A stretch of 64,000 nt of DNA from Kiritimatiellia bacterium (GCA_031553315.1 JAVBLT010000020.1:20856-84855); one strand, 5' to 3'. Counted from the stretch's first letter, positions 33,034-56,902 are shown. Made by a program: numbers and translations. The notes: generated by a model not told the origin, from the letters alone.

Positions 33034-36000
33034 ATGAAAAAAAGCATTCTTATTTTGGCACTTTTTTCAACGGCCCTCGTTTTTTCAGCGGGTGTGCCGG
33101 ATGAAACGGGCCTCGTGCCCACGCTGAATATCTCTTTCAACGTGGCCGGAACCACGGGCGATTTGAAGGATACCAATACCGGCTCCATCGCCATTTCGGG
33201 TACTGGCGACTATGTGGCCTCGCCCAACGGCAAGGCGATTAATCTGGTGGATAGCACGAAGAATCCCTACGGTAGCGTTGGCGGAGTGGTTCCCGCCGCC
33301 ACAGCCTATACGGTCGCCTTTTTCGCCAAGCTTTCGGGGAATGACGCCGGCACTCTTTTTCACTTGCAGGATTCCGCGGGAGGCTTGCTCTTTCGCCGGG
33401 GCGCCACCGCCGGTTCGGTGGTGGTGGCCAATGCCAAGGGAGCCGCGACGATTTCGCTCACAGGGCTTTCGGATTTGGAAACAAAGTGGCATTTCTACGC
33501 GCTGACCGTCGATGCCCAATTCATCACGCTTTATATTGACGGCGTGCCGCGCGGCCAAAGCGCTTCGGGCGCAACCTCGTTTGTCAACGCCAAGACAGCC
33601 TATCAGTTTGGCGCCCGGCATGGCGGGATGGGAACCGGCGAAGCGAAAAACGGCGGATTGCTTGATGATTTCCGTGTGTATGCCCGAATTCTCACCGCCG
33701 AGCAGCTTGCTGCCGTGAACTGGGCACTGGTGCCTCATTCGAAAAAGGTCATCAGCCTGAATTTTGCCACAAACGCGAATGCCTCTGCGTTGCCCGCCAC
33801 CGATGCTCGTGTGGGGCTTGAGCCGGTTGCCGCATCATCGTGGATCAATCTCGCCAATGCCGCGCAGGAGGAGGCGGTTTCGATTTACGCCAACGATTGT
33901 GCCCACCCCTTTCCGGCTCCGGCCGTTGCCTGGAGCGCTTCAACGATGTATCGTCAAGGCAGCACAGTCTCACTCGAGGCGACGGTTCTGCGCAACTATC
34001 TCGCCGATGCCCAAACGCGCACGGGCGTTGGCGTTCAGATCACCGTTTCCGATATTCCCTTTGCCGCTTATGAGGTCATCATTTATCAGGCGGCCGATTC
34101 CGCCACCCCTTTCCGCCCGCCCTCGGTCAACGGCCAGTTTTACACCTTTGATGCCACCGGTTGCCGCATTGTCAAAGGCAGCGCGAATTACGGCGATGCC
34201 AACGCCTCGCGCACCGCGTTCACGCATGGGGTCAATGCCCTGCGCATCCGTCGTGCCGCCATCGATCCCGCCGATGGCGATTTCTCCGGCGCGCTGACCA
34301 TTCTGGGGCAAATTTCCGCCGGTTCCTCCATCGCCCGCGGATGCATCGCCGCCATTCAAATTGTGGAAGTGGAACCCTTCGAAACCGTTTATACCCGAGC
34401 GATCTCAGCCGATGGCGTTTGGGGTGATTCGCTTTGGAATACCTCCTCCGCTTCCAATCAGGCATGGGTCGATGGCGCGACCGCCATTCTGAACGCTTCC
34501 TCCCCCGCCACGCTTTCGCTGGGGGTGCCTGTGCAGGCCCATGATCTGATTATCCAGGGCAAGGGTTCCCTGGCGCTCACCGGCGCTTCTCTCTCCTTCT
34601 CCGGCGCGATCAACGCCCAACTGTTCAACGCCGCCGATTCGATCACGATCGCTTCGCCCGTGCAAAATGAAAATCTGACCCTTTATGCGCACAATCCCAA
34701 CGCCTCCGCCGCCGGCAAGCTTGCTTTAACCGGATCTTTCCAGAATCTGACCCTCGGTTCCGGCACGCTCGATGCCGCCGTAAACGCAGGCAACCTTTCA
34801 CTGCAAGGCGGTTCGCTTGCTATCGCCCCGGGGATCTATGCCTATCCGGTCTCGGTTGGCGCACCCGCCGTGTTCCGGGTGGATTCCGGCGACGCAGCCT
34901 TCACGCAACCCGTGAATTCCAATGCGATCCTCACCAAGACCGGATCCGGGAACCTCACCTTTGAAAATAATCTGACCTCGACCGCCGCGCTCAGCGCCGC
35001 CGCCGGGCAGGTCACGCTCAAGGGCACCGCGAATTCGCTCCCCGACTACCCGGCCAATACCGTTTTCGCCGATGGCACAACGACCACGCTGACAACCGAG
35101 CGGCTGACCATCGCCACCGAAACACGCACCTGGCCGATGGCTCCCGGCGCAACGATCGAGACCGCCGCCTTTCGTGCGGCCAATACGAGCGCTTCGAAAT
35201 CAGTGATCAACCACACCAACGGCACCTTCCGCGTCACCGGCAACGTCTCCACCGCCGATACCGTGCCCACCTTCCTGCTCGCCTACTGGACCAACGGCGG
35301 CGCCGGCACCTACAACCTCAGCGGCGGCACCCTTTCCGTGCCCAATGCCGAAATCCGCCTGTCGCACTCCGGCACCGGCACGCTCAACATCTCGGGAAGC
35401 GGGCGCGTGGAAACGCTTGGCTTCCAAAATTGCGGCCTTTCCGGAACCATCGCCATGTCGGGCGGGAGCATCGCTCTCAACAGCGCCGGCATTCGCAGTT
35501 CCAAGATTTACCCGAAGTTTTCCGGCGGCACGCTCGAAGCCGCCGCCAGCTTCAGCATCGACAGCGCTGTCGAGCTGCTTGCGGGTGAAGGCCCTGTGAT
35601 TGAACCCAACAGCCACACCATCACCGTCAACCAGCCTTTCTCCGGCGAAGGCAGCGTGACCTTTGGTTCCGCCGGGAGCACCGGCAGCGTGATTCTGGCC
35701 GCAGACCTCAGCCACACCGGCGGCACCGTGCTCGCCGGCGGCACGCTCGATATCGGCCTACGCACGGTCATTCCCGGCGCGGTCACGGTTCAAGGCTCGC
35801 CCGCGCTGAAAATCAACGCGGGCATCTTGCCGAATTATTCCGACAGCGGCGCGTTTCACCCCTCCGCGCTGACTTTTGCCGCCGATGCTTCTCTGCGCGT
35901 GGAGGTCGATGCCGGAGGAAGCGATGTGTTGCTTGAAAGCTATGCGTTTTTCGGCGCGGTTGAAGGCATTGACGCCTCCAAAATTTCGGTTTCACTCGTC

Positions 36001-37635
36001 AATACCGGCTCCGGTTTTCCCTCGGGCGGCGCCATGCGCGCCGTCTCCGGTCCAAACGGCACGGTGCTTTTCGTGGTCTCCGGTGTGATTCACCCGAAAC
36101 GCCTCTTCTGGAACGGCTCATTCTCCTCGCGCTGGTCGACCGATCCCGCTGATATCAACTGGGGCGACGGCGCCGTTGACGGCCCCGTTGCCGCTTTTAC
36201 CGATATTGACACCGTGAATTTCACAGACCTCGCCTTTGCCGAGCAAACTGTGGATCTTTATGGTTCCCTTGCCCCCGTCTTCCTCTTTTTCAATACCGAG
36301 CTCACCGCCTATACCCTCGCTGGAACCGGCGGCATAACCGGTTCGGCAGGTATCGAAAAAACCGGAGCCGGAACCGTCACCCTCGCCACGGCCAACACCT
36401 TCACCGGCGATATCTCCATCGGCGCCGGCGAGCTCATCCTCAGCGGCACGCTTGGCACCGCCGAGGCTCCCTATTCCGGTGCGGTTACCATTGCCGAAGG
36501 CGCTGCTTTGCGCATGGAATCGGCCGCGGAAGAATCGTACAAGGGCGTTTTCAAAGATTTCGGAACCATTCGCAAAACAGGAAGCGGCACGCTGGCCATC
36601 AAACTCCCGCAGCCCTATTTTAAAGGACAGCTTCAGGTGACCGCCGGTGCCGTTTCGCTCGACAACGGTTCCTCCGCCGTGCATGGAGGCGGGTCGGGGA
36701 TCTTTGGCGATCCCATCTACAAGACCAGGTACCCCGTTCTCATCAGCGGGGAATCGGCTGTGGTGGATCTCACCGTCAATGAAGTGGTCGGGTGGTCAAC
36801 CGGGCAGGTCGGTTATCGTTTTGCCGAAATGAAAGAAGGCGCAACTCTTCTCAAAACCTCCCAAACTCAAAACCTCCTGCGCAGCTTCCTTTTCTCCGGC
36901 GATGCCCGCATGGTCAACGCGCACGAAACCGATGGCTGGAAACTGGGGCCCGGCGCCGTGTTCAAAGCGACCTCCGGCACCACCGTCTTCAGCAGCACCG
37001 GAACCCCCAACGGTCTCCTTCTGATGGGCGGCGATGCCAACCGCACCCGCGTGGAGTTTGCCGTGGAGCCCGGCGCAGAAATCCGGTTTGATACTGCCCT
37101 CGCCTGCAACTCCATCAATACCGGTATCCTTAAGACCGGCGGCGGCCTCCTCACCTTCAACGCCGCCACCGAAAACAACGCCATGCCCACCGAAATCGAA
37201 GCGGGAACCCTTGCGGTCAATGCCGCCGCCACCGGCGCCGGCACCTACACCATCGGTACCGGTGCCACGGCCGCCACCTTGCGCGGCAGCGGCACAATCG
37301 AGGGAACCGTTGCGGTCAAAGCCGAATCCATCGTGGAAACCGGTTTGACAATCGGTACCCTCGCGCTCGATAAAGACGCCGCCATCCGCGTGGTTCCCGG
37401 TCAGGAGCTCGCCGTCGGCGCCGCCTTCACCGCCGATACCTCCTTCATCGTGGACCTCTCGCTCTACACACTCGGCACACCCAGACAATTTGTGCTGACT
37501 CTGCCTGAAAGCGCCTCCATTCCGAGCGCCGAATGCGTGCTTCAGGGAGAACTGGCGAGGAGCTACCGCGCCGCCTGGGTTGGAAAAAGCCTGGAAGTGG
37601 CCCTCATGCGGGGCATATTGATCACGATTTATTGA
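33034..37635 (+). CDS. Large secreted protein 1 (1533 aa): LamG-like domain, one uncharacterised repeat domain, autotransporter-associated beta-strand repeats
   Basis: Signal peptide; WHFYALT..LYIDG..GLLDDFRVY (LamG); KTGAGTVTLATANTFTG repeats; ends RGILITIY. Confidence 0.85.
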   Translation: MKKSILILALFSTALVFSAGVPDETGLVPTLNISFNVAGTTGDLKDTNTGSIAISGTGDYVASPNGKAINLVDSTKNPYGSVGGVVPAATAYTVAFFAKLSGNDAGTLFHLQDSAGGLLFRRGATAGSVVVANAKGAATISLTGLSDLETKWHFYALTVDAQFITLYIDGVPRGQSASGATSFVNAKTAYQFGARHGGMGTGEAKNGGLLDDFRVYARILTAEQLAAVNWALVPHSKKVISLNFATNANASALPATDARVGLEPVAASSWINLANAAQEEAVSIYANDCAHPFPAPAVAWSASTMYRQGSTVSLEATVLRNYLADAQTRTGVGVQITVSDIPFAAYEVIIYQAADSATPFRPPSVNGQFYTFDATGCRIVKGSANYGDANASRTAFTHGVNALRIRRAAIDPADGDFSGALTILGQISAGSSIARGCIAAIQIVEVEPFETVYTRAISADGVWGDSLWNTSSASNQAWVDGATAILNASSPATLSLGVPVQAHDLIIQGKGSLALTGASLSFSGAINAQLFNAADSITIASPVQNENLTLYAHNPNASAAGKLALTGSFQNLTLGSGTLDAAVNAGNLSLQGGSLAIAPGIYAYPVSVGAPAVFRVDSGDAAFTQPVNSNAILTKTGSGNLTFENNLTSTAALSAAAGQVTLKGTANSLPDYPANTVFADGTTTTLTTERLTIATETRTWPMAPGATIETAAFRAANTSASKSVINHTNGTFRVTGNVSTADTVPTFLLAYWTNGGAGTYNLSGGTLSVPNAEIRLSHSGTGTLNISGSGRVETLGFQNCGLSGTIAMSGGSIALNSAGIRSSKIYPKFSGGTLEAAASFSIDSAVELLAGEGPVIEPNSHTITVNQPFSGEGSVTFGSAGSTGSVILAADLSHTGGTVLAGGTLDIGLRTVIPGAVTVQGSPALKINAGILPNYSDSGAFHPSALTFAADASLRVEVDAGGSDVLLESYAFFGAVEGIDASKISVSLVNTGSGFPSGGAMRAVSGPNGTVLFVVSGVIHPKRLFWNGSFSSRWSTDPADINWGDGAVDGPVAAFTDIDTVNFTDLAFAEQTVDLYGSLAPVFLFFNTELTAYTLAGTGGITGSAGIEKTGAGTVTLATANTFTGDISIGAGELILSGTLGTAEAPYSGAVTIAEGAALRMESAAEESYKGVFKDFGTIRKTGSGTLAIKLPQPYFKGQLQVTAGAVSLDNGSSAVHGGGSGIFGDPIYKTRYPVLISGESAVVDLTVNEVVGWSTGQVGYRFAEMKEGATLLKTSQTQNLLRSFLFSGDARMVNAHETDGWKLGPGAVFKATSGTTVFSSTGTPNGLLLMGGDANRTRVEFAVEPGAEIRFDTALACNSINTGILKTGGGLLTFNAATENNAMPTEIEAGTLAVNAAATGAGTYTIGTGATAATLRGSGTIEGTVAVKAESIVETGLTIGTLALDKDAAIRVVPGQELAVGAAFTADTSFIVDLSLYTLGTPRQFVLTLPESASIPSAECVLQGELARSYRAAWVGKSLEVALMRGILITIY

Positions 37636-37670
37636 TAAACTGATTTTGATTCAAAGAATTATCCTGAATG

Positions 37671-37699
37671 CCGGCGGCAGGTGCTCAACCTGCCGCCGG
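37671..37699. terminator. GC-rich hairpin, probable terminator
   Basis: 12-bp perfect stem ccggcggcaggt/acctgccgccgg after the gene; weak T-tail. Confidence 0.55.
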
Positions 37700-37805
37700 T
37701 TATCGTATGAAAAATCGTGTGAAAAATTTGTTTTGCGATTGTTTTTTTTTCAGGCATGTGCTACGTTGTGAACAAATTGTGTTGTTGATTTCAAGGCAGA
37801 TGGAT

Positions 37806-38126
37806 ATGATGCGATTTTGCTTTTTTTTGACCATGGGGCTTTTTTTGGCCGGCTGCGGCGATTCTCCCGGAGCTTCCTCCCTGAAATTCATTAAAGCCGT
37901 GCGCGACGGCAACATTGAGCGCGCCTCTTCTTATTTGGCCGAAGGCGTGGCGATTCCAGCCGATACATCCGCCATTGTCAACGGTTTCATTGTTGAGCAG
38001 GAGGTCGTCAGCGGTCAGGTCGCCACCGTCGTCCTCCGCCGGCAGTATGATAAAACCGTGCCCTCCGTGTTGATTGAGCTGGAAAAGAGCGGCGCCTCCT
38101 GGCGTTTGAAGACGCTTCCCTTTTGA
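37806..38126 (+). CDS. Small lipoprotein (DUF4878-like)
   Basis: Lipobox LAGC; SP...FIKA..G, ATVV and LEK..WR pattern. Confidence 0.6.
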   Translation: MMRFCFFLTMGLFLAGCGDSPGASSLKFIKAVRDGNIERASSYLAEGVAIPADTSAIVNGFIVEQEVVSGQVATVVLRRQYDKTVPSVLIELEKSGASWRLKTLPF

Positions 38127-38274
38127 AAAGCCGTTTTTATTTTCAGGCTGCGTTCCGCGTGACGCACCTTCGTGAAATGGCGCTGTGATTTTCTTGTGCC
38201 GGAGGCTCGCCTCCCGTATGCTCTCTTTATAATTACGGTTGGATACTTTTCGGGGCTAGCCCAAGGAGCGTGAT

Positions 38275-41200
38275 ATGAAAAAAATGTGCTTTGTTGCGTT
38301 GTTATTGGCCGGAGGCGTGCCGTTTTTCGCGGTTGCGGCCTCGCTGAGCGTGAACTTTACAACACCGGGCGGAACCGGCGCGCTGGTTCAGGGCTCGAAT
38401 TACGGGCTTGTGCCCGTGACGGCCGCCAATTGGAACCAGGTCACCACGGTCAGCGCCGCCGCAAATGATGTGGCCGATGATGTGTTTCCCGCCGCGGTCG
38501 CGCTGAAAGACAGCTCCGGCGCTCTGACCGCCGCCACTGTCGCGGCCGATGCCCGAACGCTTGAAACCGGCCTCGGAACCGCCTATGATCCCATTTTGCG
38601 CGGTTATATGCTTGATTATGCCGGAGGAACGGCGCGCTCCGAGAATGGTTGGCCCAAGGTGAAGCTCACCGGAATTCCGTATTCGCGCTACCGCGTGTAC
38701 GTCTATATGTGCAATGAAACCTGGGAGAAAAGCGGTTCCGTGACCATTACGCCCGAAGGCGGAGCCCGCAGCGATTTTTATTATATGGACGGCGCCTCCG
38801 TTAAAACCGCCGCCGACAACACCGGCTGGGGCAACCGCGGGATCAACGCGCTTAAGCTGGGCGTCAACTGCCTGCGGACGCCTGTGCTGAGCGAGCCTGC
38901 GATCACCGTCGGCGCGTATCGGAGCAACAGCGCCTATTTCCGCGGAACCATCGCGGCGATTCAGGTTGAGGAAGTCAGAACCGAAACCCTCACGCTGACC
39001 GGAAACCAGACCATCAATGCCGCCGACTACACGCCCGGCGTGGAGCTCACGATTGACAATGCCGGCTCCGGCAATACCCTCACGGTGAAAGGCGCGCTCA
39101 GCGTGGGCACGCTGACCTTCACCGGCAACCCGTTGAACATTCGCCTGGCCGAACCCATCGCGGCCGACACCCTGCTGGTGCAGAACAGCCTCACATTCAC
39201 CACTTTTCTCAAAAATTCCGTCTTGCCGCAACGGCTGACTTTGCTTGATGGAACCATCACGCTTGAAGGTGCGGGCGCGCTGAACCTGCCGCCTCCGGCG
39301 GGCGCCGATTCGTTCACGCGCGATACGGCCGCCACCACCGGCCTTCACGCTTACGCGCAGCGCCTGCTCCCCCAGGCGGGGCTCGGCTCGGTCAGCGTCA
39401 ACTTCGCCTCCAACAAAGCTTCGCTTGAAGGTCAAAGCGGCGTTGTCGGCGCCTATCCCGTCGATGCCGCCCGGTGGATGAACACCGCCAATCCCGGCAA
39501 CAGCGGCGGCACGCCGACCACAACCGTCTTTTCCGCGCTGACCAACGATCTGGGAACCGTTCTTTCCGCTTCGCTTCAGGTGTGTTCCAACGGCGGAACC
39601 TACAACAATGGTTCCAACGCCACACTGATCGGCAAGCTGATGTATGGGTATCTTGACGATTCCCACGGAAGCAATTTCGCCGGTTTTCAGGTCACGGGCG
39701 TGCCGTATGAGCGATATGGCGTGATCATCTATTTCAATACCGACAGCGGCAACGCCACGCCCTTCCCCGCTTACCGCGTCAACGGAGCCTACTATCGCGG
39801 AACCCCCGCTTTGGGCACATTGACCGGCACCGGCGCGCAGAACTACTGGGGCGCCAAATCGACGACGGCGCTGACTGAAGGCGGCAACTATCTTGTCGTG
39901 ACCGGCTTCAGCAACACCGACAATCCGAACCTGCTGGTGTCTCTCCCCGCCGGAGCCGTTCCCTGGTATGCGGGATACCGCGCCTGCATTTCCGGTTTTC
40001 AGCTCGTCGACATGACCAGCCTCTTCCCGCCCGAGCATTACACCGCCACCGTGCCCGGCAGCGCCGCCATGACCGAAATCGAATGGGACAACGGCAAAAA
40101 CTGGAGCGGCGGCTCTTTGAATGCCACCGCCGCCATTGATTTCACCTCCGCCGCCACCCTCACGCTCGATGGATCCGTGATGCTTCAACAACTGGCGCTT
40201 TCCAGCGCCGGCAGCCTCCTCATCAGAAATGCCGCCGTGCCCCTTGCCGTGGCCTCCTGGGATCTCGGCGGCGTGACCGCGCTGGTGATCGACGGCCAGA
40301 GCGATACCCTCTTCCCGGCTCCCATGACGAGCCTCCCGAAAAAATACCTCTACACCGCCCCCGGCGGCACGGTTTCAATCGATGCCGGAAAGGTCTATGA
40401 ATTCCACGCGGGAACCGCCGAATCCCCCGCCGTCTACACCCCGGTCTACGCCGGCGGCGAGCTTCAGATCACCGGCGGCCATTACCGGATGACCGCCGCT
40501 CCCACCCCCGCGAAAACCACGCTCAAAATCAGCGGCGACCCCGTCATTCACTTCAACAACGGCTCCGCCGATACCAATTTCGACGTCGGCTCGATGGACG
40601 TCACGCTCTCGGGCGGCACGATTCGCGCCGGTAAATTCATCACCTCTCAAGGCGGCGACAACCGCCCCAACACCTTCACCATGACCGGCGGCGAGATCAT
40701 CGTCTCAGGCAACGGTTCGGCCGGCGCCACCGGCACGGCTCCGCTCATGTTCGGCCACTGGGGCGCGGCCGCGACCGGCAAATCGGTCGTCAACCTCTCC
40801 GGCGGCTCCATCCGCGCCGACAACGGCGGCTTCCGCCTCAGCAACGACAGCCAGGTCGATTTCACCATGAGCGGCGGCTATCTCCGCGCCAAAGAAATCA
40901 GAGGCAAAGGCAACAACGACACCACCTTTACCCTCTCCGGCGGCGAGCTCGCCATCGGCTCCGGCGGTTTCGACAACCTCGGAAGGTGCACCTTCACCCT
41001 GGCCGGCGGCGCCGTCACGGCGCTCGAGACCAACGGCATCCGCATGACCGTTTCCACGCGCGCCGGAACCACCTCCACCGTCTCCGCCGCCGCCGGTCAA
41101 TCGACCAGCCTCGCGGTCGTTCAGGGCGGAGGCAACCTTGTGTTCGGCACGGAAACCAACACCGGCGCCATGAGCCTCACCGCGCCCTGCCCCGCTTTCA

Positions 41201-44200
41201 GCGGCAGGCTGACGCTCGGCGGCATCGCCTTTAAAATGGGAACCTTCCGCATGCCCGCCGCCACGCTCGATCCCGCCTCAGCCGGCGCAATCAGCCTGAC
41301 GCTTTCAAATGAGGACTTCACCGCCGTCGACCCGCTCGCCATAATCGGCTGGAGCGGCGCCGACCTGCCTGAAAACATCACCTTCGCCGTTTACGAGCCC
41401 GACGGCGCCACCCTTCGCGCCGATTGCCCGGTCATTCTCGACACCGCCCGCCAATGCCTCGCCATCGCCCTTCCCGGGCAGACCTGGACGGCCTCCTCCG
41501 ACCTCTCCGGCCTCAATGCCTACACCAACCTGACCGTGGGCGACGGCGCCGCGGCCGACGGCCTGATCGCTTTCAACCAGCTCATCGTTCCGGCGGCCGG
41601 AGGCGCCATCGCCTGTTCGGGCGATGCCTCGATCCGCCCCGCCTCGCTCGTGCAAACCGGCAGCCTCACGCTCGACGCCACCGCCTTTGCATCCAAAGCC
41701 GCCTATGCCGCCCCCGGCCTGCCCTACAGCGCCTGCCTGCTCCACACGGCCATCGGCGACACCTCCAAGGTCACCATCATTCCGCCCGAGCTGCCCGTGG
41801 GGTATGAAACCGCCACCGAAGTCTATGCCGACGGCGCCTACCTCGTCATCACCTCGCCGGTCTACACCACCCCCTGCATCAGCCTCAACTTCATCGCCGC
41901 CGACGGCGTCGACGGCCCCAAAGCCGGCTACGGCCAGCTTCAGAGCCCGACCATTCACTACGGCGCTTACCCCGTGCCCGGAGCCGACTGGCATGAAATC
42001 GATGCCGTCGCCAATTCGGCCAACACCACGACCAACATCGGCCAAATCAGCGTGTCGCAGTGGGGGCAGCGCGGTTACTACGGCTGCTCCACCGTGCCGC
42101 TCGATTTCCTCAAGGGGTATATCGACGACGGCACCGATTATGCCCGCCCCTCCCTCACCATTCGCGGCCTCGAAGCCGCCTTTGGCGAAGGCGCCAAGTA
42201 TCGCGTGGTCTTCTACGCCTCCACCGACACCGCGGGCGGTCAGTTTGGCTATGCCACCATCGGCGGCGTGAACTACTCCGCCAAACACGGCCACACCGTT
42301 AAAGCCCTCGCCGAAAAATGGGGCGACTCCCGCTCCACAACCCCCGTAGAGGGCGATTTCCATGTGATTTCCGACGTCCTCACCGGCGATGAACTCATCC
42401 TCAGCGGCAACCGCCTCAGCGGCTCCGTGCGCGGAACCATCGCCGCCATCCAGATCGTGCAGGTCACCGATACGCTTCGCCAGGTGCCGCTCTACCAACC
42501 CACCGCCCTCGCCACCGGCGATTGGACCGACAGCGCCTGGGTCGACGCTTCCAACGGCGACGCCCCCTACGGCGGCTCCTGGAATGAACCCGCCGCAATG
42601 GCGCTGATCGATGCAACCAACGCCGGCGCCGTCACGCTCACCGTGAATCAGGCCGTCGCCCTCGCCAAGCTCACCGTCAAAGGCGGCGGCGACCTGACCA
42701 TCGCCCTGGGCCCCGGCGGCAGCTTCACCGCCGCGGAGTACGATTTCTCCCAGCACACCGGCACCCTTGCCGTCGGCTTTGCCACCGGCGTCGCCAACGT
42801 GACCTCCGGCGCCCGCACCGCCCTGGTTTCCGGCTCGGGCATCCTCACCATCGATCCCGGCAAAGTGGCCACCCTGCCCGCGCTCGGCGCGTGGAGCGGC
42901 ATCGTGATCAACAACGGCATCATCCGTTACCGCGGTGCCCTCACCGCCTCGGCCGTGCCCGCCCAGGTCGGCGTCGTCGCCTTCGACGACCTCACCTACA
43001 CCGGCAATGCGGGCTTCAGCGTGCCCACCTTCAAAATGGAACCCGGCGACCGCCTCCTGATGAACAACACCGAAAATCCCGCCAACGCCCACCGCTTCGC
43101 CAGCAACGCCCTCATCACCGGCGGCACCCTCACCATCGGCTCCGCCGCTTCGCGCCAGGCCGCGTATTGGAACGGCAACACCACCATCACCCAAACCGGC
43201 GGCGACATTGTTTACGAGAGCGACGGCATTCAAGACGGCGTGACCCAAGCCAAAGGCTTCCTCTTCGGCGCCAACGCCGGCAGCACCGCCTGGATCGCCT
43301 CCGGCGGCTCCATCCATGCGCCCAAAGCCCCGCTCAACTTCTGGTCCCTGCCCGGCAGCCTCACCCTTTCGGGCGGCGCCCAGGCCGCCTTCGCCGGCAT
43401 TATCCGGGGCAGCGGAAACGGCAGCAGCACCGTGATCGTGAAAGACGGCGCCTCGCTGACGCTCGGTGCGACCGGCGTGCCCGCCGCGACCGGCCTGGCG
43501 ACCTTTACCGTGACCAACGCCACACTCAACGCCTCCGCCACCACCGCCTTCGAGAATACCTTGACGCTGGGCGGCGAGGTCTCCCTCGGCGTTGCTCCCG
43601 GCGAAACCCTGACCCTCGGCGGCGCCCTTTCGGGCACTGGCGTGGTCTCGCTGAAAAGCGGAACCCTCGCCGTTCAGGCAAACACCTCCTCCGGGTTCAT
43701 CGTGGAAAACGGAGCCGCCTTGCGCATCGAAGGCCTCATGGGCGGCGCGAAGAACCGCCACATTCGCCTACGCGTGACCGATTGGCCCAAAACCAACCCC
43801 AACGGCAACCTCTCGCTCGTCGCCTCCGGCGTCGCCATCGGCGAATTCCGCCTCCTCTCCGGCGGCCGGCCGCTTGCCTGGGGCCAAGCCACCCTCGCCG
43901 CCAACCCCGAGCACGGCAACGGAGCGGCAGCCAATGAAGGCAGCGGCAAAATGTTCGACGGCGCGTTCAACACCAAAGCCTACATGAGCGCCGTCGCCGC
44001 GCAATACGTCTTCACCTTCGACCGGAAAGACGGCGCCCCCGTGTTCGACGCCTACCAGATCTTCGCCACCGACGTCAACGGCCGCAACCCCATCGCCTGG
44101 GTTCTCGAAGGCAGCGACAACGGCACAACCTGGGTTGAACTCGACCGGCGCACGCTGACGCTCGACGAGGCCGCCGCCTGGTCCTGGACCGGCGCAACCG

Positions 44201-44592
44201 CAAACGAGCCCGGCCCCAGCCAGGGCAAAACCTTCACCCTCGCCTCAGGCCGCGCCCGGGATCTCACCGTCAGGAGCGGCGCCGCACTGGGCGGCACCGG
44301 CCTTGTCTCCGGGAAACTGGTTTTGGAAGACGGCGCCCTGCTCAGAAAAACCAACCCCGACCCTGAAGCCGCGCTCACCCTCAGCACCCCCGCCCAGCTC
44401 GGCGGTTCCGTTCGCGTGCAATGGTCCGGCTTCCCGCTTCAAAAGAACGTGAAAAACTACATCCTCAAAGGCCCCGGCACGCAAAGCCTCGACCTTTCAA
44501 AGATCGTGCCGCCCCCCGCGGCCAGGATCGGCCTCGACGAAACCGGTCTTTTCCTCCAGACCCGCGTGGGATTGACGATTCTGTTCTTCTGA
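38275..44592 (+). CDS. Large secreted protein 2 (2105 aa): three copies of an uncharacterised domain, beta-repeat stalk, discoidin-like insert
   Basis: Signal peptide, GG-rich passenger-like repeats, WVLEGSDNGTTW motif; ends VGLTILFF. Confidence 0.85.
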   Translation: MKKMCFVALLLAGGVPFFAVAASLSVNFTTPGGTGALVQGSNYGLVPVTAANWNQVTTVSAAANDVADDVFPAAVALKDSSGALTAATVAADARTLETGLGTAYDPILRGYMLDYAGGTARSENGWPKVKLTGIPYSRYRVYVYMCNETWEKSGSVTITPEGGARSDFYYMDGASVKTAADNTGWGNRGINALKLGVNCLRTPVLSEPAITVGAYRSNSAYFRGTIAAIQVEEVRTETLTLTGNQTINAADYTPGVELTIDNAGSGNTLTVKGALSVGTLTFTGNPLNIRLAEPIAADTLLVQNSLTFTTFLKNSVLPQRLTLLDGTITLEGAGALNLPPPAGADSFTRDTAATTGLHAYAQRLLPQAGLGSVSVNFASNKASLEGQSGVVGAYPVDAARWMNTANPGNSGGTPTTTVFSALTNDLGTVLSASLQVCSNGGTYNNGSNATLIGKLMYGYLDDSHGSNFAGFQVTGVPYERYGVIIYFNTDSGNATPFPAYRVNGAYYRGTPALGTLTGTGAQNYWGAKSTTALTEGGNYLVVTGFSNTDNPNLLVSLPAGAVPWYAGYRACISGFQLVDMTSLFPPEHYTATVPGSAAMTEIEWDNGKNWSGGSLNATAAIDFTSAATLTLDGSVMLQQLALSSAGSLLIRNAAVPLAVASWDLGGVTALVIDGQSDTLFPAPMTSLPKKYLYTAPGGTVSIDAGKVYEFHAGTAESPAVYTPVYAGGELQITGGHYRMTAAPTPAKTTLKISGDPVIHFNNGSADTNFDVGSMDVTLSGGTIRAGKFITSQGGDNRPNTFTMTGGEIIVSGNGSAGATGTAPLMFGHWGAAATGKSVVNLSGGSIRADNGGFRLSNDSQVDFTMSGGYLRAKEIRGKGNNDTTFTLSGGELAIGSGGFDNLGRCTFTLAGGAVTALETNGIRMTVSTRAGTTSTVSAAAGQSTSLAVVQGGGNLVFGTETNTGAMSLTAPCPAFSGRLTLGGIAFKMGTFRMPAATLDPASAGAISLTLSNEDFTAVDPLAIIGWSGADLPENITFAVYEPDGATLRADCPVILDTARQCLAIALPGQTWTASSDLSGLNAYTNLTVGDGAAADGLIAFNQLIVPAAGGAIACSGDASIRPASLVQTGSLTLDATAFASKAAYAAPGLPYSACLLHTAIGDTSKVTIIPPELPVGYETATEVYADGAYLVITSPVYTTPCISLNFIAADGVDGPKAGYGQLQSPTIHYGAYPVPGADWHEIDAVANSANTTTNIGQISVSQWGQRGYYGCSTVPLDFLKGYIDDGTDYARPSLTIRGLEAAFGEGAKYRVVFYASTDTAGGQFGYATIGGVNYSAKHGHTVKALAEKWGDSRSTTPVEGDFHVISDVLTGDELILSGNRLSGSVRGTIAAIQIVQVTDTLRQVPLYQPTALATGDWTDSAWVDASNGDAPYGGSWNEPAAMALIDATNAGAVTLTVNQAVALAKLTVKGGGDLTIALGPGGSFTAAEYDFSQHTGTLAVGFATGVANVTSGARTALVSGSGILTIDPGKVATLPALGAWSGIVINNGIIRYRGALTASAVPAQVGVVAFDDLTYTGNAGFSVPTFKMEPGDRLLMNNTENPANAHRFASNALITGGTLTIGSAASRQAAYWNGNTTITQTGGDIVYESDGIQDGVTQAKGFLFGANAGSTAWIASGGSIHAPKAPLNFWSLPGSLTLSGGAQAAFAGIIRGSGNGSSTVIVKDGASLTLGATGVPAATGLATFTVTNATLNASATTAFENTLTLGGEVSLGVAPGETLTLGGALSGTGVVSLKSGTLAVQANTSSGFIVENGAALRIEGLMGGAKNRHIRLRVTDWPKTNPNGNLSLVASGVAIGEFRLLSGGRPLAWGQATLAANPEHGNGAAANEGSGKMFDGAFNTKAYMSAVAAQYVFTFDRKDGAPVFDAYQIFATDVNGRNPIAWVLEGSDNGTTWVELDRRTLTLDEAAAWSWTGATANEPGPSQGKTFTLASGRARDLTVRSGAALGGTGLVSGKLVLEDGALLRKTNPDPEAALTLSTPAQLGGSVRVQWSGFPLQKNVKNYILKGPGTQSLDLSKIVPPPAARIGLDETGLFLQTRVGLTILFF

Positions 44593-44593
44593 A

Positions 44594-44630
44594 AAAAAGC
44601 GGCGCTCCCCGAAAAGGAGCGCCGCTTTTT
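44594..44630 (+). terminator. Intrinsic terminator
   Basis: aaaaagcggcgctcc-loop-ggagcgccgcttttt. Confidence 0.85.
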
Positions 44631-44747
44631 CGCCTGCTCACACGAGGATGCACATCGCGTCGCCGTCAAATCGTTCACTTGCTTTTCTCCCTTTTGGCTT
44701 TTATGATTCCCGCAACACACATTGAGGTGCTGTCGAAAGGAATCAAA

Positions 44748-47700
44748 ATGAAAAACATCGGGAATTTTAAGCGTTTGCGCATCGGCGTTTCTCTCATGGC
44801 TCTGTTTCCGCTTCTTGCGGCCGCCGGATCGATCAGTTTGAATTTCACCCCCGCCGGCAATATCGGCGACCTCGAGGCGGGAACCAACTATGGTCTTGCC
44901 CCTGCGGACGGAAGCGCCTGGACTCAGATCACCGCCGTCAGCGGTGGAGGAGAAGCCAATCTAAACGAGCTCTGGTCTGCCCCCGTGATTCTCAAAGATG
45001 CCAAGGGCGTAATCACAACCGCGACCATTGAGACCGATGCCCGCGCACTTGAGCGCGGAAACGGTACGAATTACGACGGCCTTCTCCGCGGTTATTTTCT
45101 CGATTACTGGGTAGGTGCCCGCTGGGAGCAGCAAAGCTGGCCCAGAATCAAGTTAAGCAACATTCCCTATGCGCGCTATCGTATCTACGTTTACATGTGC
45201 AACGCCAGCATCGTGAAAAACGCCTCTCTGACCATCACGCCCGAAGGCGGCGAGCAAAGCCTCTATTATTATATGTCGGGCGCCACGCTGAAAACCGCCG
45301 CCACGCCCACCGCCTGGGGCGATAAAGCCGTCACCGCGCCCACGCTGGGTTCCAACTGCCTGCTCACGCCCATTCTGAGCGAACCCACGATTACCATCAA
45401 GCTGCACCGGGTCGCCGGCGAATCCCGTGCCAGCGTGGCGGCCATGCAAATCGTGGAAATGGATGAGCCCACCCTCACGCTCTCTTCCGATGCCACAATC
45501 AATCCCGTTGACTACACGCCGTGCAGCGCGCTGACCATCGTCAACAACGGCACGGGCAACACCCTCACCCTCAACGGTGCGATCAGCCTCTCCTCGCTCA
45601 ACGTTTCGGGCAACCCGCTCATTATCAAGCAGAGCGCGCCTCTCTCAATCGAGAACACCGTTGAAATCAATACCGCGATCACATTCGTTCCCGCAATCAC
45701 ATCTTCCGTTTGGCCGCAGCGCCACCTGCTGATCAACGCGCCCGCCGTCACCCTTGGCGCTTCCGGTTCCGTGCAGTTTGCGCCGTCGCGTGAAGGGTTT
45801 ATCGTCAGCCAGGAAGGATCTCTTGGCGCAGGTCTTTCGGCCATTGTCCGCTCCGCCCTTCCCGAGCCCGGAAGCGCCCGAACGGTTTCCGTCAATTTCG
45901 CCTCCGACATTTCCTCCCTTGCAGGCGAAACCGGTATGGTGGGCGCCTATCCGGTCGATGCTTCTCTTTGGATCAATTGCAATCAATACGGCAACACAGG
46001 CGCAAACCCCACGCAGACCGTTCTCTCCGCATTGGCCGATAATCTTGGCAACACCAATGAGACCTCCTCGCTGCAGGTGGCTTCACGTGGCGGCGGTTAT
46101 TACAGCGGCACAAAAAACACGCTGATCGGCAAGCTCATGTATGGTTATCTCGATGATTCAAACAACGGCAGCAACTATGCCGGTTTCAAGGTCACCAACG
46201 TTCCTTACGATTCTTATGCCGTGGTCATCTATTTCAATAACGCGGGCGGTCAGGCCAATCCCTTCATCGCCTATCGCGTCAACGGTTCCTATTATCGCGG
46301 CGATGCCGCCCTGGGCGGAACCCTTCCCGCCTCCGGCGCCACCGCCTATTGGGGATCGAAATCGACCACCGCGCTTACAGAAGGCGGCAACTATTTGGTG
46401 ATCGGCGGCTTCTCAAAAGAACGCACCCCCGATTTGCTTGTTTCAATCGATAACTGGGGGTCAGGCGGTTATCGCGGATGTATTTCCGGTTTTCAACTGA
46501 TTGAAACCGATTCAACGATCCCTGCTGAAACATTTTCGGCAACCGTTTCCGGCGATGCGACCCTGTCGCAAATCGCCTGGGATGATGGAAAAGCCTGGAT
46601 CGGCGGCTCGCCCAACACCTCCGCCACGATCACCTTCGAAGGCGATGCCACCCTCACGCTCGACGGCGTGGTCTCGCTCAAGAGCTTCACTCTGATTTCT
46701 TCCGGCAGGTTGCTCATCAAAAATGCAGCCACGCCTCTTTCCGTTTACAACTGGGATCTGGGCGGCGTTGCCGCGCTTGAGCTTGATGGCCAGGGCAGCA
46801 CGCTCCTTCCTTCGCCCATGGCGGCCATTCCGAAAAAATACTTCTACACCGCTCCCTCCGCCACGCTCAACGTGGCCTCGGGCGAAGTCTACGAAATGCA
46901 TGCCGGTTCCGCGGAATCGCCCGCCGTTTACACCGCCAGCTACGCCGGCGGCGCGCTTGAGATCAGCGGCGGCAATTACCGCATGACCGCCCCTCCCACG
47001 AATACCCGAACCGCGCTTGATATCAGCGGCAACCCCGTTGTCCGTTTCCACAACGGCACCGCCGAGCAGACCTTCGGCATCGGCAAGATGAATGCGGTCA
47101 TCTCCGGCGGAACCATTTACGCCAGCAAGTTTGTGACTACCGAAGGCGCGGATTTCCGTACCAACACCGTCGATATCACCGGCGGCGACATCATCATCTC
47201 CGGAACCGGCGCCGCCAGCGCAACTTCAACCGCCGCCCTGATGTTCGGCCACTGGTCGGCCGGAAATTCCGTCGTTACGCTTTCGGGAGGCTCCATCCGC
47301 GCCGACCAGGGCGGTTTCCGCATCAGCAACGACAGCCCTGTCGACTTCACCGTGAGCGGCACCGGTTACCTCCGCGTGAAAGGGATCGGCGGAAAGGGCA
47401 CGCAACCCACCGCCTTCACAGTCGCCGATGGCGGCGAGGTCGCGATTGGCGTCAACGGCTTTACCAGCCTTGCCAACCTCACCTTCACGCTCGCCGGCGG
47501 TGCGTTGACCTCGTTTGAAAACAACACCATCAGCATGGCAATCACCGCCCGGGAAGGAACCGTTTCCACCATTTCCGCCGCAGCCGGGGTCACAGCCACC
47601 CTCAACGCCATTCAAGGCGGCGGCTCGCTCATTCTGGGTACCGCCGCCAACACCGGCACCCTCAAGCTCGCCTCCGCGCTGCCCGCTTTCACAGGAACCC

Positions 47701-50603
47701 TCACCCTCAACGGCGCCATCGATTTTGGCACGTGCCGCCCCACCGCCGCCACGCTCGACCCCGCCTCCGCCGGCTTGGTTAATCTCAAAATCACCGCCGC
47801 GGAAATCAAAGCCGCCAAAGTTCCCCTGATTGGCTGGAACGGCGCCGAGCCGCCCGAAAATGTGACCTTCGCCATTTACGGAACCGATGGCGCGCTCCTG
47901 CCAACCGCCCGTGTGAAAGTGGATCCCGCCAGCCGCAGCCTTTGCCTTGCAATCAACGAAACCGTTTGGAACGGAACCCTTGATCCCGCCTCCCTGAGCG
48001 CCACCTCCAATCTCGCTCTCGGAGACGCTGCAACGGCGGATAGCCTGCTCAATTTCCAATGGCTGCTTGTGCCGCCCTCCGGCGCCACAGTGACCTGCCT
48101 TCCCGGCGCTTCCATCCGCCCCGCCGCCGGTACGGTGTTTGATGGCCCGCTCACGCTCGATGCCACAGCCCTTTCCGCGTGCGCCGGTTACACCGCCTTC
48201 GGCATGCCCTACACCGCCTGCCTCCTTTACGGAACAATCGGCAATACCGACCTCGTCACCGTGATTCCTCCGGAAGTGCCGACCGGCTACACCGCCACGG
48301 TCGAGGTCTTCGCCGACGGCGTGTACCTGACTCTCGCCTCGCCGATCATCGAAAACCCCAGCCTCTGCGTCAACTTCACCGCCAATGCCATGACGGGCGT
48401 TAAAGATAAAGAGCCGCCTTACTTCGGAGCCCTGAGCAATCCTGCCGCCCGTTACGGCGTCTTCCCCGTGTTGGGTTCCGAATGGTTCGAGGTTTTTGTC
48501 GCCAACACCAACCTGCCCTTCACCGTTGAAATCGCCCCCGGTCTCTCCGTTTCCGGCGAAAATCACCGCGGAGCCTATGGCGGAACCACCTTCCCCGCCG
48601 ACTATCTCAAGGGGTATATCGACGACAATTCCGCAGTCTCCTCCCCCACCGTTGCCATTACAGGTCTTGAAGAAGCGTTCGGCGCCGGTGCGAAATACCG
48701 TGTGATCGTCTACTCCTCGACCAACTACAACGGCGCCAAATTCGGTTACATGACCATCGGCGGCGTGAACTACTCCATCGCCCACAGCCACACCGTCGGT
48801 GCTCGCGATGACAACTGGGGCAGCCCTCAGGCCGCGCTTTTGGCCGAGGGTAATTATCACCTCGTTTCCGATGTGCTGACCGGCGATGCCGTCACCGTTA
48901 CGGCTCACAGCAAGAGTACAAACGTTCGCGGAACGATTGCCGCCATCCAGGTTGTGCAGGTGTTCGATGAAGCCAAAGCCGTGCCGTTTTTCAAAGCCGC
49001 CGAAGTGGCCGATGGAAGCTGGACGGCGCTCCCCTGGGTAAACATAAGCGAAAATGATGAACCTTACACCGGCGATTGGATCGAACCCGGCGCTGTGGTG
49101 TGGATTGATGCCTCCAATGGCGACCCCGTCACGCTCACGGTTGAAGCTCCCGTTGAGATTTCCAAGCTCATCGTCACCGGTTCGGGCGAGGTCACGCTCA
49201 CCCTGGGCGATGCGGGAAGCTTTTCCGCCATTGATTATGATTTCGCCGCTCATACCGGAAAATTTACCGTTGGTTTTGCCACGGGTGCGGCGAACGTCGC
49301 CGTGGGTACCCACACCCGGCTTGTCGGCGGTTCCGGCTCGCTGACCATCGCAGCCGATAAAATGGCCTCCATTCCCACCTTCGGCGCGTGGAGCGGCTAT
49401 ATGGTGAAAAACGGTATCCTTCGCTATCACAATTCAATCGCGGTAACCAACAGCATTCCCGCTCAGACCGGAACAGTCGCTTTCAACTCGCTCTCCTTTG
49501 TCGGCAGCGGAACGAACGGTCTTGCCGTGCCCACGCTCTTAATGGAAGAGGGCGATGAAGTGACGCTTGTCAACAACTCAACGAGCGCCGCAACCCGGTT
49601 TGACAGCAATGCCGTCATCACCGGCGGTACGTTGACCATCGACGCGAATAAAAACCCGGCGGCGTTTTGGAACGGCAACCGCACCATCACCCAAACCGGC
49701 GGCAGCGTTGTCCATCTGGGTACCGGCACAATGACCGGCACCGCCAACGCCACCGGTTTTGTTGTGGGTACCGGTTCGGGTTATACCACCTGGAATATGA
49801 GCGGCGGAACCATTCACTCCCCCAACGCGCCGCTCCATTTCTGGGCCAACGGCGGCGCAATTACGCTTTCCGGAACGGCCCGGGCGACCTTTACGGGCGT
49901 GATTTGCGAGGGTGGCGGCGACCGCCAGTATACACGGCTGATTGTGAAAGACGGCGCCACGCTCGCGCTCGGAGCGCGGGGAATTACCCGAACTGCGATT
50001 ATGACCCAGTTTCATGTGTCCGATGCTTCTCTTACCGCATCCGCCTCCACTGGTATCGCCCATGCGATGACGGTGGGCGGGGTGGCGAACCTCAGCGCTG
50101 CTGCCGGTCAAACGCTCACCTTTACCGGAGCGCTTTCCGGCGCCGGCGGCATGGCCGTAACCGGCGGCACGCTTGCCCTTGGCGGTGAAGTTTCGGTGGC
50201 CGGCGAAGTGGCGGTTGAAACGGGCGCGACCCTGCGCGCCGCCTCCGCGGCCATCAACCCCGAAAGCGGCGTCCGCGTGAAAAACGGCGCCACGCTCACC
50301 GGATCCGGAACCATCGGAACCGGCTTGGCCTTCGAAGACGGCGCCGTGCTTCTGAAGCCCTCCGCCGATCCTCTCGATGCCCTCACCCTTACCGGTTCGC
50401 TTACCCTCCCCGAAACCGGTGCGCTTCGCGTGGCCTCGATCGGCGGGCTTGCCAACAGCGTGAAGTATTACATCCTCAAAGGCGCCGGCACGCAAGACGC
50501 CGACCTCGACAGGATCGCCCCTGCCGACGAAGCCCGAGTGGGCAAAGACGAAACCGGCATCTTCCTCCGCCGCCGGATCGGGATCCTCATCAGCATCTAT
50601 TGA
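44748..50603 (+). CDS. Large secreted protein 3 (about 1951 aa), paralog of protein 2
   Basis: ATG 44748 with AAGGA RBS and a signal peptide; colinear with protein 2; ends IGILISIY. Confidence 0.85.
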   Translation: MKNIGNFKRLRIGVSLMALFPLLAAAGSISLNFTPAGNIGDLEAGTNYGLAPADGSAWTQITAVSGGGEANLNELWSAPVILKDAKGVITTATIETDARALERGNGTNYDGLLRGYFLDYWVGARWEQQSWPRIKLSNIPYARYRIYVYMCNASIVKNASLTITPEGGEQSLYYYMSGATLKTAATPTAWGDKAVTAPTLGSNCLLTPILSEPTITIKLHRVAGESRASVAAMQIVEMDEPTLTLSSDATINPVDYTPCSALTIVNNGTGNTLTLNGAISLSSLNVSGNPLIIKQSAPLSIENTVEINTAITFVPAITSSVWPQRHLLINAPAVTLGASGSVQFAPSREGFIVSQEGSLGAGLSAIVRSALPEPGSARTVSVNFASDISSLAGETGMVGAYPVDASLWINCNQYGNTGANPTQTVLSALADNLGNTNETSSLQVASRGGGYYSGTKNTLIGKLMYGYLDDSNNGSNYAGFKVTNVPYDSYAVVIYFNNAGGQANPFIAYRVNGSYYRGDAALGGTLPASGATAYWGSKSTTALTEGGNYLVIGGFSKERTPDLLVSIDNWGSGGYRGCISGFQLIETDSTIPAETFSATVSGDATLSQIAWDDGKAWIGGSPNTSATITFEGDATLTLDGVVSLKSFTLISSGRLLIKNAATPLSVYNWDLGGVAALELDGQGSTLLPSPMAAIPKKYFYTAPSATLNVASGEVYEMHAGSAESPAVYTASYAGGALEISGGNYRMTAPPTNTRTALDISGNPVVRFHNGTAEQTFGIGKMNAVISGGTIYASKFVTTEGADFRTNTVDITGGDIIISGTGAASATSTAALMFGHWSAGNSVVTLSGGSIRADQGGFRISNDSPVDFTVSGTGYLRVKGIGGKGTQPTAFTVADGGEVAIGVNGFTSLANLTFTLAGGALTSFENNTISMAITAREGTVSTISAAAGVTATLNAIQGGGSLILGTAANTGTLKLASALPAFTGTLTLNGAIDFGTCRPTAATLDPASAGLVNLKITAAEIKAAKVPLIGWNGAEPPENVTFAIYGTDGALLPTARVKVDPASRSLCLAINETVWNGTLDPASLSATSNLALGDAATADSLLNFQWLLVPPSGATVTCLPGASIRPAAGTVFDGPLTLDATALSACAGYTAFGMPYTACLLYGTIGNTDLVTVIPPEVPTGYTATVEVFADGVYLTLASPIIENPSLCVNFTANAMTGVKDKEPPYFGALSNPAARYGVFPVLGSEWFEVFVANTNLPFTVEIAPGLSVSGENHRGAYGGTTFPADYLKGYIDDNSAVSSPTVAITGLEEAFGAGAKYRVIVYSSTNYNGAKFGYMTIGGVNYSIAHSHTVGARDDNWGSPQAALLAEGNYHLVSDVLTGDAVTVTAHSKSTNVRGTIAAIQVVQVFDEAKAVPFFKAAEVADGSWTALPWVNISENDEPYTGDWIEPGAVVWIDASNGDPVTLTVEAPVEISKLIVTGSGEVTLTLGDAGSFSAIDYDFAAHTGKFTVGFATGAANVAVGTHTRLVGGSGSLTIAADKMASIPTFGAWSGYMVKNGILRYHNSIAVTNSIPAQTGTVAFNSLSFVGSGTNGLAVPTLLMEEGDEVTLVNNSTSAATRFDSNAVITGGTLTIDANKNPAAFWNGNRTITQTGGSVVHLGTGTMTGTANATGFVVGTGSGYTTWNMSGGTIHSPNAPLHFWANGGAITLSGTARATFTGVICEGGGDRQYTRLIVKDGATLALGARGITRTAIMTQFHVSDASLTASASTGIAHAMTVGGVANLSAAAGQTLTFTGALSGAGGMAVTGGTLALGGEVSVAGEVAVETGATLRAASAAINPESGVRVKNGATLTGSGTIGTGLAFEDGAVLLKPSADPLDALTLTGSLTLPETGALRVASIGGLANSVKYYILKGAGTQDADLDRIAPADEARVGKDETGIFLRRRIGILISIY

Positions 50604-55449: not shown

Positions 55450-55787
55450 AATACCTCCATTGTCAGGGGGCGCTCTGTGTGAGACAAAAAGCACACCTCT
55501 CAGTTCAGTACTCTCAAAGGAGGCTTCGCACGGCCTAAGCTGAAAGCATGAAGAGAGGCGTGCCAAATAATGACACAACCTCCGCTTACATGTCGTTCAG
55601 CTTAAAGAAAGTGCGAATTTCCTTTGAACGATTTGTATGCGGTGAACGCAAATTATTGAAAACTATACGTCTTTGGGGTTGAAGGAAGGTTGCCTAAGCA
55701 ACATCTTCAGCAATCCATCAAACATCATGAGGGTAACAAAAGAATTGATTGAATGCAAGCGTAGTTTTGTCTCTTTCAAAAAAGAAA

Positions 55788-56527
55788 GGTTCATGACAAC
55801 TTAAGCGGGTCGTTTCGCAGTAACTTTAAAAGCATCTTATAAGTGTCAGCCTTCCGATAATTGAATCGGAACTCACACTCCTTTAAATGCAAGTAAAAGG
55901 TATTTTTAGAGATCCCTTTGAATTTTGCAAGCCTCGTTTTTGCAAGTCCCCAAAAATTCTCAATCCCGTTGATATGGGCCTGGCCGACGGCAAACTGATT
56001 CTCACCGTGTTTTACGCGATAATGCCGCCGATACCCAAAATCAACCAGCCCATCATAGGTGCGAAAACCATCGGTATAGACGACCACATCGTGGCCGACG
56101 TGATTGCTGATAATCGGATAAAGTTCTTTCACTGAACAGGTTTTAACCACTTGCGTATAAACCTTTCCGCCGCGTTTGATCAACCCGAAAACAATTTGTT
56201 TCCCTCGTGCGCCTCGCCCACGGATTCCCCGCACGCGCCTGGCTCCGAAATAGCTTTCATCCATTTCAACGCTTTCCTGTTCAAACGGGCTTTCCTGTTC
56301 ACACAGCCAGGCAATGCACACGCGCAGGGCTTTTAAAACACGATTGACCGTATTGCGGCTCAGCCCTGTCAAACCCGCAATTTTAACCGCTTTAATATCG
56401 TTAACAAAGTAACAAACAAGTGCTCGCGTTTGAGCCTCCGAAATTCGAGAACGAACGATATACTTATTAGCCATTGAAATCATGATAGCTTATCCTGAAT
56501 TTTATTCAAGTTAAGTTGTCATGAACC
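55788..56527 (-). mobile_element. IS1595-family insertion sequence (IS1016-like size), 740 bp, intact
   Basis: 17-bp perfect terminal inverted repeats GGTTCATGACAACTTAA. 8-bp target duplication AAAAGAAA at 55780-55787 and 56528-56535. Confidence 0.93.
55791..56474 (-). CDS. IS1595 family transposase
   Basis: EMDESYFG, RGRGA, VYTD, HINGIENFW and LKECEFRFN motifs. Alternative start at 56483. Confidence 0.93.
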   Translation of the reverse strand: MANKYIVRSRISEAQTRALVCYFVNDIKAVKIAGLTGLSRNTVNRVLKALRVCIAWLCEQESPFEQESVEMDESYFGARRVRGIRGRGARGKQIVFGLIKRGGKVYTQVVKTCSVKELYPIISNHVGHDVVVYTDGFRTYDGLVDFGYRRHYRVKHGENQFAVGQAHINGIENFWGLAKTRLAKFKGISKNTFYLHLKECEFRFNYRKADTYKMLLKLLRNDPLKLS

Positions 56528-56532
56528 AAAAG

Positions 56533-56560
56533 AAAAAACGCCTCTGACTTGGGCGTTTTT
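56533..56560 (-). terminator. Intrinsic terminator of the toxin-antitoxin operon
   Basis: Minus strand aaaaacgccc-aagtcaga-ggcgtttttt. Confidence 0.7.
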
Positions 56561-56596
56561 CGAGGAAATATCGTTTGTCGGAAATCAGTGGAAGGA

Positions 56597-56902
56597 TCAG
56601 CCGAATAGAATCCGCGTGCAATCCCGGCGAGTATAGAGAACGCGGATGATGCGGGCGGTGTTGGTTTCAAGGTAGTAAAAAATGCGATACTGACCACACA
56701 GAAGCGAACGGTAGGGTGTGGAAATTCCGATTGGCGAAAACTCAACGCCGGATTGAGGAAAGGTACGCAATCGATGGGTGGCTTCGAGAATGGCGGTGAG
56801 TGTTTTGGTAGCGGCCTCTGGATTCAAACACTCTTCGCCAAGATAAGATCGAATCGCCTGAAGGTCGCGCAAAGCCTCAGGGACAAAGTGGACATCATAC
56901 AT
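56597..56902 (-). CDS. RelE/ParE family toxin
   Basis: MYDVHFVPEALRDLQAI..L.TFPQSG..YRIFY..IIRVLYTRRD; overlaps the antitoxin stop. Confidence 0.88.
   Translation of the reverse strand: MYDVHFVPEALRDLQAIRSYLGEECLNPEAATKTLTAILEATHRLRTFPQSGVEFSPIGISTPYRSLLCGQYRIFYYLETNTARIIRVLYTRRDCTRILFG

Follow-up and report, generated by a model that had tools for sequence, protein, structure and literature searches.

Tripartite sorting signals, as outlined by Haft (bioRxiv 10.1101/2023.06.07.544157), lie at or near the C-terminus, occur in several copies per genome on proteins most of which have a signal peptide, and consist of a signature motif, a hydrophobic segment of transmembrane (TM) length and a cluster of 2-5 basic residues. 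Here we describe a short C-terminal tail that closes three giant proteins in a 64,000-nucleotide stretch of Kiritimatiellia DNA (the window). Like PEP-CTERM, the tail is found at the extreme C-terminus, recurs in many copies (23) in one genome, is borne by proteins that have a signal peptide but differ in their N-terminal parts, and follows the same beta-helix cap that comes before PEP-CTERM in a sister order. It differs from PEP-CTERM in having one near-invariant residue (Gly at -7) instead of a signature motif, and in having 5-6 hydrophobic residues followed by at most one terminal K/R. The tail has no P-E-P and no TIGR02595 match at E <= 10; it is distinct from PEP-CTERM and too short for a TM segment, as a preliminary description of the locus had maintained.

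A second point of comparison is the beta-signal of outer-membrane barrels. The tail can likewise be read as a short terminal strand with a Gly near its end, a strict position at the end of the chain and, in this genome, a Y/F terminus, whereas the phase of its hydrophobic residues is shifted, its terminus is K/R in most lineages, and no barrel lies upstream. The C-terminal 240-250 residues are instead modelled as a right-handed beta-helix, so the tail would not be the last strand of a membrane barrel. With type Va autotransporter passengers and their C-terminal autochaperone/cap region, the tail proteins share a Sec signal, N-terminal functional domains, a right-handed beta-helix stalk and PATR repeats. 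Unlike autotransporters, they have no linker helix and no 12-stranded barrel, and the chain stops seven residues after the cap. The lack of a barrel, already noted for the three proteins, is confirmed by Pfam and extends to the whole genome, in which PF03797 has 0 matches.

The C-terminal domain of type IX secretion (T9SS) cargo is a beta-sandwich of ~80-100 aa found in Bacteroidota. The tail is comparable in being a candidate C-terminal export or attachment tag common to many large surface proteins of one lineage, but no T9SS model matches either 47 tails collected across genomes (E <= 10) or the three whole proteins (E <= 0.01), in line with the dissimilarity claimed earlier. Two-partner secretion differs in its components, as TpsB (PF03865) has 0 matches in the genome and the TPS domain is absent from the three proteins. 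Cargo of type I secretion has no Sec signal peptide and an unstructured C-terminal signal, whereas the tail proteins carry Sec-type N-termini. More broadly, the same 47 tails have no relevant model in Pfam or NCBIfam at E <= 10, so that the comparison with described domains that had been called for finds none that matches, and a literature search of titles and abstracts found no published description of such a tail. The tail bears on how bacteria of the PVC group export and hold giant, barrel-less, passenger-like beta-helix proteins.

The three giant proteins and their neighbourhood

The window is part of a genome of 2.47 Mb in 64 contigs (94.6% complete). All three reading frames are uninterrupted on the + strand and share the C-terminal ending given in the preliminary description, which had also assigned Sec signals to them; Sec-type N-termini are indeed present on all three. 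The coordinates of these and other features are collected in Table 1.

Table 1. Features of the window, numbered from its first nucleotide.
Feature	Position	Strand	Description
ORF of 212 aa	21527-22165	+	no Pfam match; weak terminal PEP-CTERM match at 22088-22147 (13.5 bits, under the cut-off)
Protein 1 (P0001)	33034-37635	+	1533 aa, ends ...MRGILITIY; Sec signal peptide; LamG_3 (aa 86-225); domain common with proteins 2 and 3 (~aa 240-447); PATR/TIGR02601 repeat (aa 1106-1136); cap and tail
Protein 1, C-terminal module (last 60 aa)	37453-37632	+	tail GILITIY at 37612-37632
Small ORF between proteins 1 and 2	37668-38126	+	lipobox-like L-A-G-C after an internal Met; no Pfam match
Protein 2 (P0002)	38275-44592	+	2105 aa, ends ...RVGLTILFF; Sec signal peptide; uncharacterised ~200-aa domain present three times; beta-helix stalk; cap and tail
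Protein 2, C-terminal module (last 60 aa)	44410-44589	+	tail GLTILFF at 44569-44589
Protein 3 (P0003)	44748-50603	+	probable start at the signal-peptide Met; ends ...RIGILISIY
Protein 3, C-terminal module (last 60 aa)	50421-50600	+	tail GILISIY at 50580-50600
Low-GC island	53677-57037		GC 0.37 in 54001-56000; includes a 633-aa ORF without Pfam match
IS1595-type transposase (in island)	55791-56483	-	
ParE toxin gene (in island)	56597-57037	-	

Within the three proteins, known families are few. At E <= 0.01, Pfam recognises LamG_3 and a single PATR repeat in protein 1 and has zero matches in proteins 2 and 3, while the only NCBIfam match is TIGR02601 in protein 1. The repeat in question scores 43.9 bits with TIGR02601, over the cut-off, and 26.5 bits with PATR, for which the cut-off is 27. 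Proteins 2 and 3 are paralogues with 50% identity over 1836 residues. Protein 1 had been credited with a different architecture, which is correct only in part because it has one ~200-aa domain in common with proteins 2 and 3 (27% identity). Region 1650-2105 of protein 2 resembles discoidin-domain proteins, and a homologue search with the C-terminal 456 aa of this protein returned just seven distant matches, all by way of the discoidin domain.

The reading frame of protein 3 is open from position 44421 and gives 2060 aa from the first ATG (44421-50603), whereas the gene as called in the database encodes 1966 aa and starts at residue 95 (position 44703). The signal peptide itself begins at the Met of M-K-N-I-G-N-F, which is residue 110 and lies at about position 44748. 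The true start is most likely later than the first ATG, and with a start near 44748 the apparent overlap with protein 2 disappears.

The genes around the trio are of the housekeeping kind, with mraZ, rsmH and a penicillin-binding protein (PBP) gene upstream, and ksgA and a SurA-like gene downstream. The small ORF between proteins 1 and 2 may encode a small lipoprotein, and the low-GC island is probably inserted mobile DNA.

The tail in the source genome and its relatives

The same ending closes 23 ORFs in the genome, 21 of which are 837-2110 aa long. In a set of 13,209 stop-to-stop ORFs with a length of >= 80 aa, 20 end in the strict pattern G-[ILVFMT]-x-[ILVFM]-x-[ILVFM]-[FYW]-stop, and 18 of these are ORFs of 837-2110 aa. 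A C-terminal scan of the kind that had been proposed finds this pattern at 17 termini of 1753 crude genes, compared with 0.33 expected by chance from 154 internal matches in 814,084 positions. With a profile built from the last 45 residues of those 18 sequences, 22 ORFs are recovered at E < 0.01, each with a match that reaches the last or next-to-last residue; the 23rd is weak by this profile and was included by eye. Two or three further divergent endings, spotted in the genome by eye, are not counted among the 23. A signal peptide is recognisable by eye on at least 20 of the 23 proteins, and their cargo is varied (LamG, CBM35, DUF642, phosphodiesterase/sulfatase and discoidin). The tail is a real, conserved and strictly C-terminal feature of signal-peptide proteins, and it reaches well beyond the three paralogues to which it might have been confined. 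The three proteins are best explained as members of a family of Sec-exported surface proteins with a beta-helix stalk, found in gut Kiritimatiellia and numbering 23 in this genome.

The preliminary description treated the tail as a free-standing single strand. We find instead that it is the end of a module of 45-60 residues, which runs from a generic beta-helix cap through a basic stretch and a turn residue to six mostly hydrophobic residues and the stop codon. The cap follows the pattern '...Y-x-L-L-x-W ... G-x-F ... L-P-x-G-W-x-L-x-Y ... G-L-Y-L-x-R' and is of a widespread kind; one off-target protein has it in internal copies, with the tail absent. The spacing from the turn residue to the stop codon is exactly six residues in all 23 copies here (G in 22, P in 1), and the same spacing is seen in other genomes in 29/29 matches and in 36/36 more (G 30, P 3, A 2, F 1). 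Among 1.84 billion representative proteins, position -7 is Gly in 105 of 114 matches, and off-target repeat proteins account for five of the other nine. Basic residues flank the tail at -10 to -8 and, in most lineages, also at -1, and between them both faces of the tail (-6 to -2) are hydrophobic in most lineages, with Ile at -4 in 74/105 tails and V, I or L at -2 in 98/105. The last residue is less uniform: of the 105 database tails, 72 end in K or R and 15 in Y or F, whereas 19 of the 23 tails of the source genome end in Y or F, and some genomes have a mixture. One class of tails, G-T-[LM]-I-x-[LIV]-x, is hydrophobic at alternate positions only, the others being variable, as is usual for a structural strand, and resembles the G-T-L-x-L strand of PATR repeats.

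The chain end itself is strict. An extension beyond the tail is seen only in P0052 among on-target database matches and in none of the 88 copies taken from genomes. Such strictness is notable beside two further C-terminal motif families of giant ORFs in this genome, used as an internal control, in which the motif is followed by 3, 5, 3, 3, 8, 3, 3, 3 and by 14, 12, 4, 4, 5, 6, 5 residues, respectively. The first of these families comprises eight giant ORFs (1235-2140 aa; contigs including C14, C4, C16, C58 and C51), which stop a few residues past K-R-S-[YF]-P-V, and the second comprises seven (870-3729 aa; contigs including C49, C44, C53 and C57), in which an F-F-R motif lies 4-14 residues before the C-terminus.

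By RNase G, the nearest public genomes (84-86% identity) are metagenome-assembled Kiritimatiellae from gut and rumen, some of them named 'Candidatus Spyradenecus'. The profile of the 23 tails has a match in 0/18 same-family genomes at E <= 0.001. Across the order, 54 of 301 genomes (the source genome included) match at E <= 0.01, among them 48/203 in one family and 1/32 in the source genome's own family. A broader profile of 47 tails matches 21 of 401 genomes of the phylum at E <= 0.001, with 13/17 genomes in the family that gave 48/203, 2/6 and 1/2 in two others and 1/17 in the source genome's own. With its 23 copies, the source genome contrasts sharply with this tail-poor family of its own, in which the 1/17 to 1/32 genomes that match do so weakly. 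Tail-bearing matches are confined to one order of gut Kiritimatiellia, and the three matches outside this order are to the cap only. In a genome of the same class and another order, the cap runs directly into a PEP-CTERM anchor. Two genomes of other classes have an additional domain of ~130 aa after the cap, which in one of the two is itself closed by an ending of the F-L-R-L type. A search of the 1.84 billion representative proteins gives the 114 matches mentioned above at E <= 0.001, with the match ending <= 4 residues from the protein end in 107; about 12 of the 114 are the source genome's own proteins and five are the off-target repeat proteins.

Divergent tails, with the spacing preserved and the Gly lost, occur as well. 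One same-family genome has a cap and a hydrophobic tail ending in R without Gly at -7 (L167, G009:C9:75300-76200), and in four copies from another family (L194-L197, genome G050) the spacing is kept while -7 is Pro in three and Ala in one. Orthologues of the giant proteins were not found in the same-family genomes, where searches returned discoidin-domain matches only. Such discoidin-like matches in relatives that lack the tail (L141-L146, in genomes G004, G007, G009, G010 and G012) lie in open frames of 4,515-9,797 aa.

Structure models and the search for a partner

AlphaFold2 models the last 250 residues of protein 3 as a right-handed beta-helix with a mean pLDDT of 82.8 (alignment of 45 sequences), and a 240-residue relative in the same way with a mean pLDDT of 92.7 and a pTM of 0.90 (103 sequences). 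In both models, the last strand assigned by DSSP precedes the turn (in protein 3, it is G-I-F-L-R-R), the final nine residues are not a strand, and the cap domain appears complete without a donated strand. Neither model, then, builds the tail as an ordinary terminal strand of the last domain, an outcome that would have undercut the earlier proposal. The final ten-residue block has a pLDDT of 82 and 84 in the two models, compared with 94-98 just before it; such values do not indicate disorder, and the models therefore place the tail somewhere. Foldseek returned nothing from the PDB at E <= 0.001. The VIA-align neighbours are generic beta-helices (Z 8-11.5) that include the autotransporter passengers Vag8, pertactin, Pet and Hbp (Z 8-10). 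When the last 90 aa of P0029 were co-folded as a trimer, without controls, the score was 0.00, which favours neither binding nor its absence.

The preliminary description envisaged a dedicated outer-membrane translocon that acts on the tail in trans. Family searches of the genome and comparison of gene neighbourhoods found neither such a translocon nor another partner of the tail. The genome has a single Omp85 protein (BamA) and three secretin ORFs, and TamB has no match. In the 6 kb on either side of each of the 23 tail genes, no family recurs apart from a few enzyme-sized ORFs, and the flanks of 41 loci in other genomes have no recurrent neighbour, only alternative-frame artefacts. About 12 prepilin-type genes form two clusters; they were considered as partners and set aside, as none is within 8 kb of any tail gene. 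The three exosortase-family genes of the source genome (contigs C22, C40 and C61), compared with one in 17/18 same-family genomes, raised the possibility of a cognate enzyme, which we rejected since 14/22 tail-positive genomes have a single exosortase and 1/4 tail-negative genomes has two. The two extra exosortases do not track the tail.

Readings of the tail

The best single reading, to which we give a little less than even confidence, is that the tail is a functional C-terminal tag, a retention or sorting strand that docks in trans. We favour it because the chain end is strict, because both faces of the tail are hydrophobic in most lineages, because it lies outside the folded cap in the two models, and because it closes many different cargos and takes the place held by PEP-CTERM in the sister order. 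We infer action in trans, a role in retention or sorting, and binding by strand addition. The last seven residues would form a beta-strand that is sticky and left unpaired, with a free chain end that has to keep its exact position, and beta-strand addition would join this strand to an envelope partner. Docking would either keep the part of the stalk nearest the cell at the surface or pass the protein on for export, and the tail would thereby take the role that the PEP-CTERM anchor plays after the same cap in the sister order. Several observations speak against such a tag: no partner emerged from the searches, one class of tails alternates, the last residue varies, and the pLDDT of 82-84 is not that of a disordered segment. 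The many copies could also reflect paralogy of one module because all members share the stalk and the cap.

Taken further, cap and tail could represent a novel class of signals for sorting or anchoring at the C-terminus of proteins in diderm bacteria, a proposal that we put forward tentatively and with some leaning towards doubt. In such a class there would be no TM segment, and the free end would be read by a receptor in the envelope, so as to display giant barrel-less, autotransporter-like adhesins and enzymes, up to 23 per genome, in an order of gut Kiritimatiellia. If it acts as a signal, the tail would be the PVC group's first short C-terminal sorting tag that lacks a membrane-spanning segment, and it would point to a receptor or translocon. 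In either case, the combination of turn residue, six residues and stop codon provides a searchable handle on probable surface adhesins and glycan-active proteins of uncultured gut and rumen Kiritimatiellia.

The alternative that survives best is purely structural: the tail would be the last, truncated strand of a beta-helix rung that caps its own stalk, with no role in targeting, and its copies would reflect expansion of a stalk-and-cap module. We consider this a real possibility, if one that we would rather doubt than accept. It stays a serious rival because of the PATR-like alternating class of tails, the common stalk and the failure of the searches to find a partner or machinery; the tail is, moreover, always attached to the same cap, and the pLDDT of its last block is consistent with a defined place in the fold. 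On the other hand, DSSP assigns the tail no strand in either model, and most tails are hydrophobic on both faces. A strand of this kind should also tolerate C-terminal extension, which is limited to P0052 here, whereas the length past the motif varies in the two other motif families. Even if it is only structural, the tail would still be a useful family marker, and its strict chain end would still want explaining.

Two other explanations are both improbable. In the first, the tail mimics a BamA beta-signal, such that the BAM complex recognises it and exports or anchors a barrel-less passenger. The high proportion of Y or F termini in this genome (19/23) and the fact that BamA is the sole Omp85 protein found are in its favour, and a resemblance to the beta-signal had been remarked on in the preliminary description. 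The likeness proves superficial: the genome's own barrels (two TonB-dependent receptors and BamA) have hydrophobic or aromatic residues at -1, -3, -5 and -7, whereas the tail conserves -2, -4 and -6. Furthermore, K or R is the usual last residue across the family (72/105), the upstream fold is a beta-helix rather than a barrel domain, and BamA would be expected to be blocked by any strand that paired with it stably. In the second, which we hold to be just as unlikely, the aggregation-prone tails pair with one another between copies, by strand exchange or in a cross-beta arrangement, so that the stalks are gathered into fibres or into a layer on the surface. The tails, as hydrophobic, beta-branched hexapeptides flanked on either side by basic residues and common to many different proteins of one genome, would suit this, but there is no direct sign of such pairing, and in both models the cap domain needs no donated strand to look complete.

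Finally, it is very unlikely that the tail is a shrunken PEP-CTERM, that is, a remnant of an exosortase signal that is still processed or has become functionless: the same cap does precede PEP-CTERM in the sister order, a hydrophobic run is followed by a basic end, and exosortase-family genes are in excess here (3 vs 1 in 17/18 same-family genomes), but 5-6 hydrophobic residues cannot span a membrane, the P-E-P motif and TIGR02595 matches are absent from the tails, the extra exosortases do not follow the tail, and strong conservation opposes a functionless remnant. A working set for PEP-CTERM proper is present in this genome, with about nine matches over the cut-off, all in ORFs of 141-268 aa, in addition to the exosortases.
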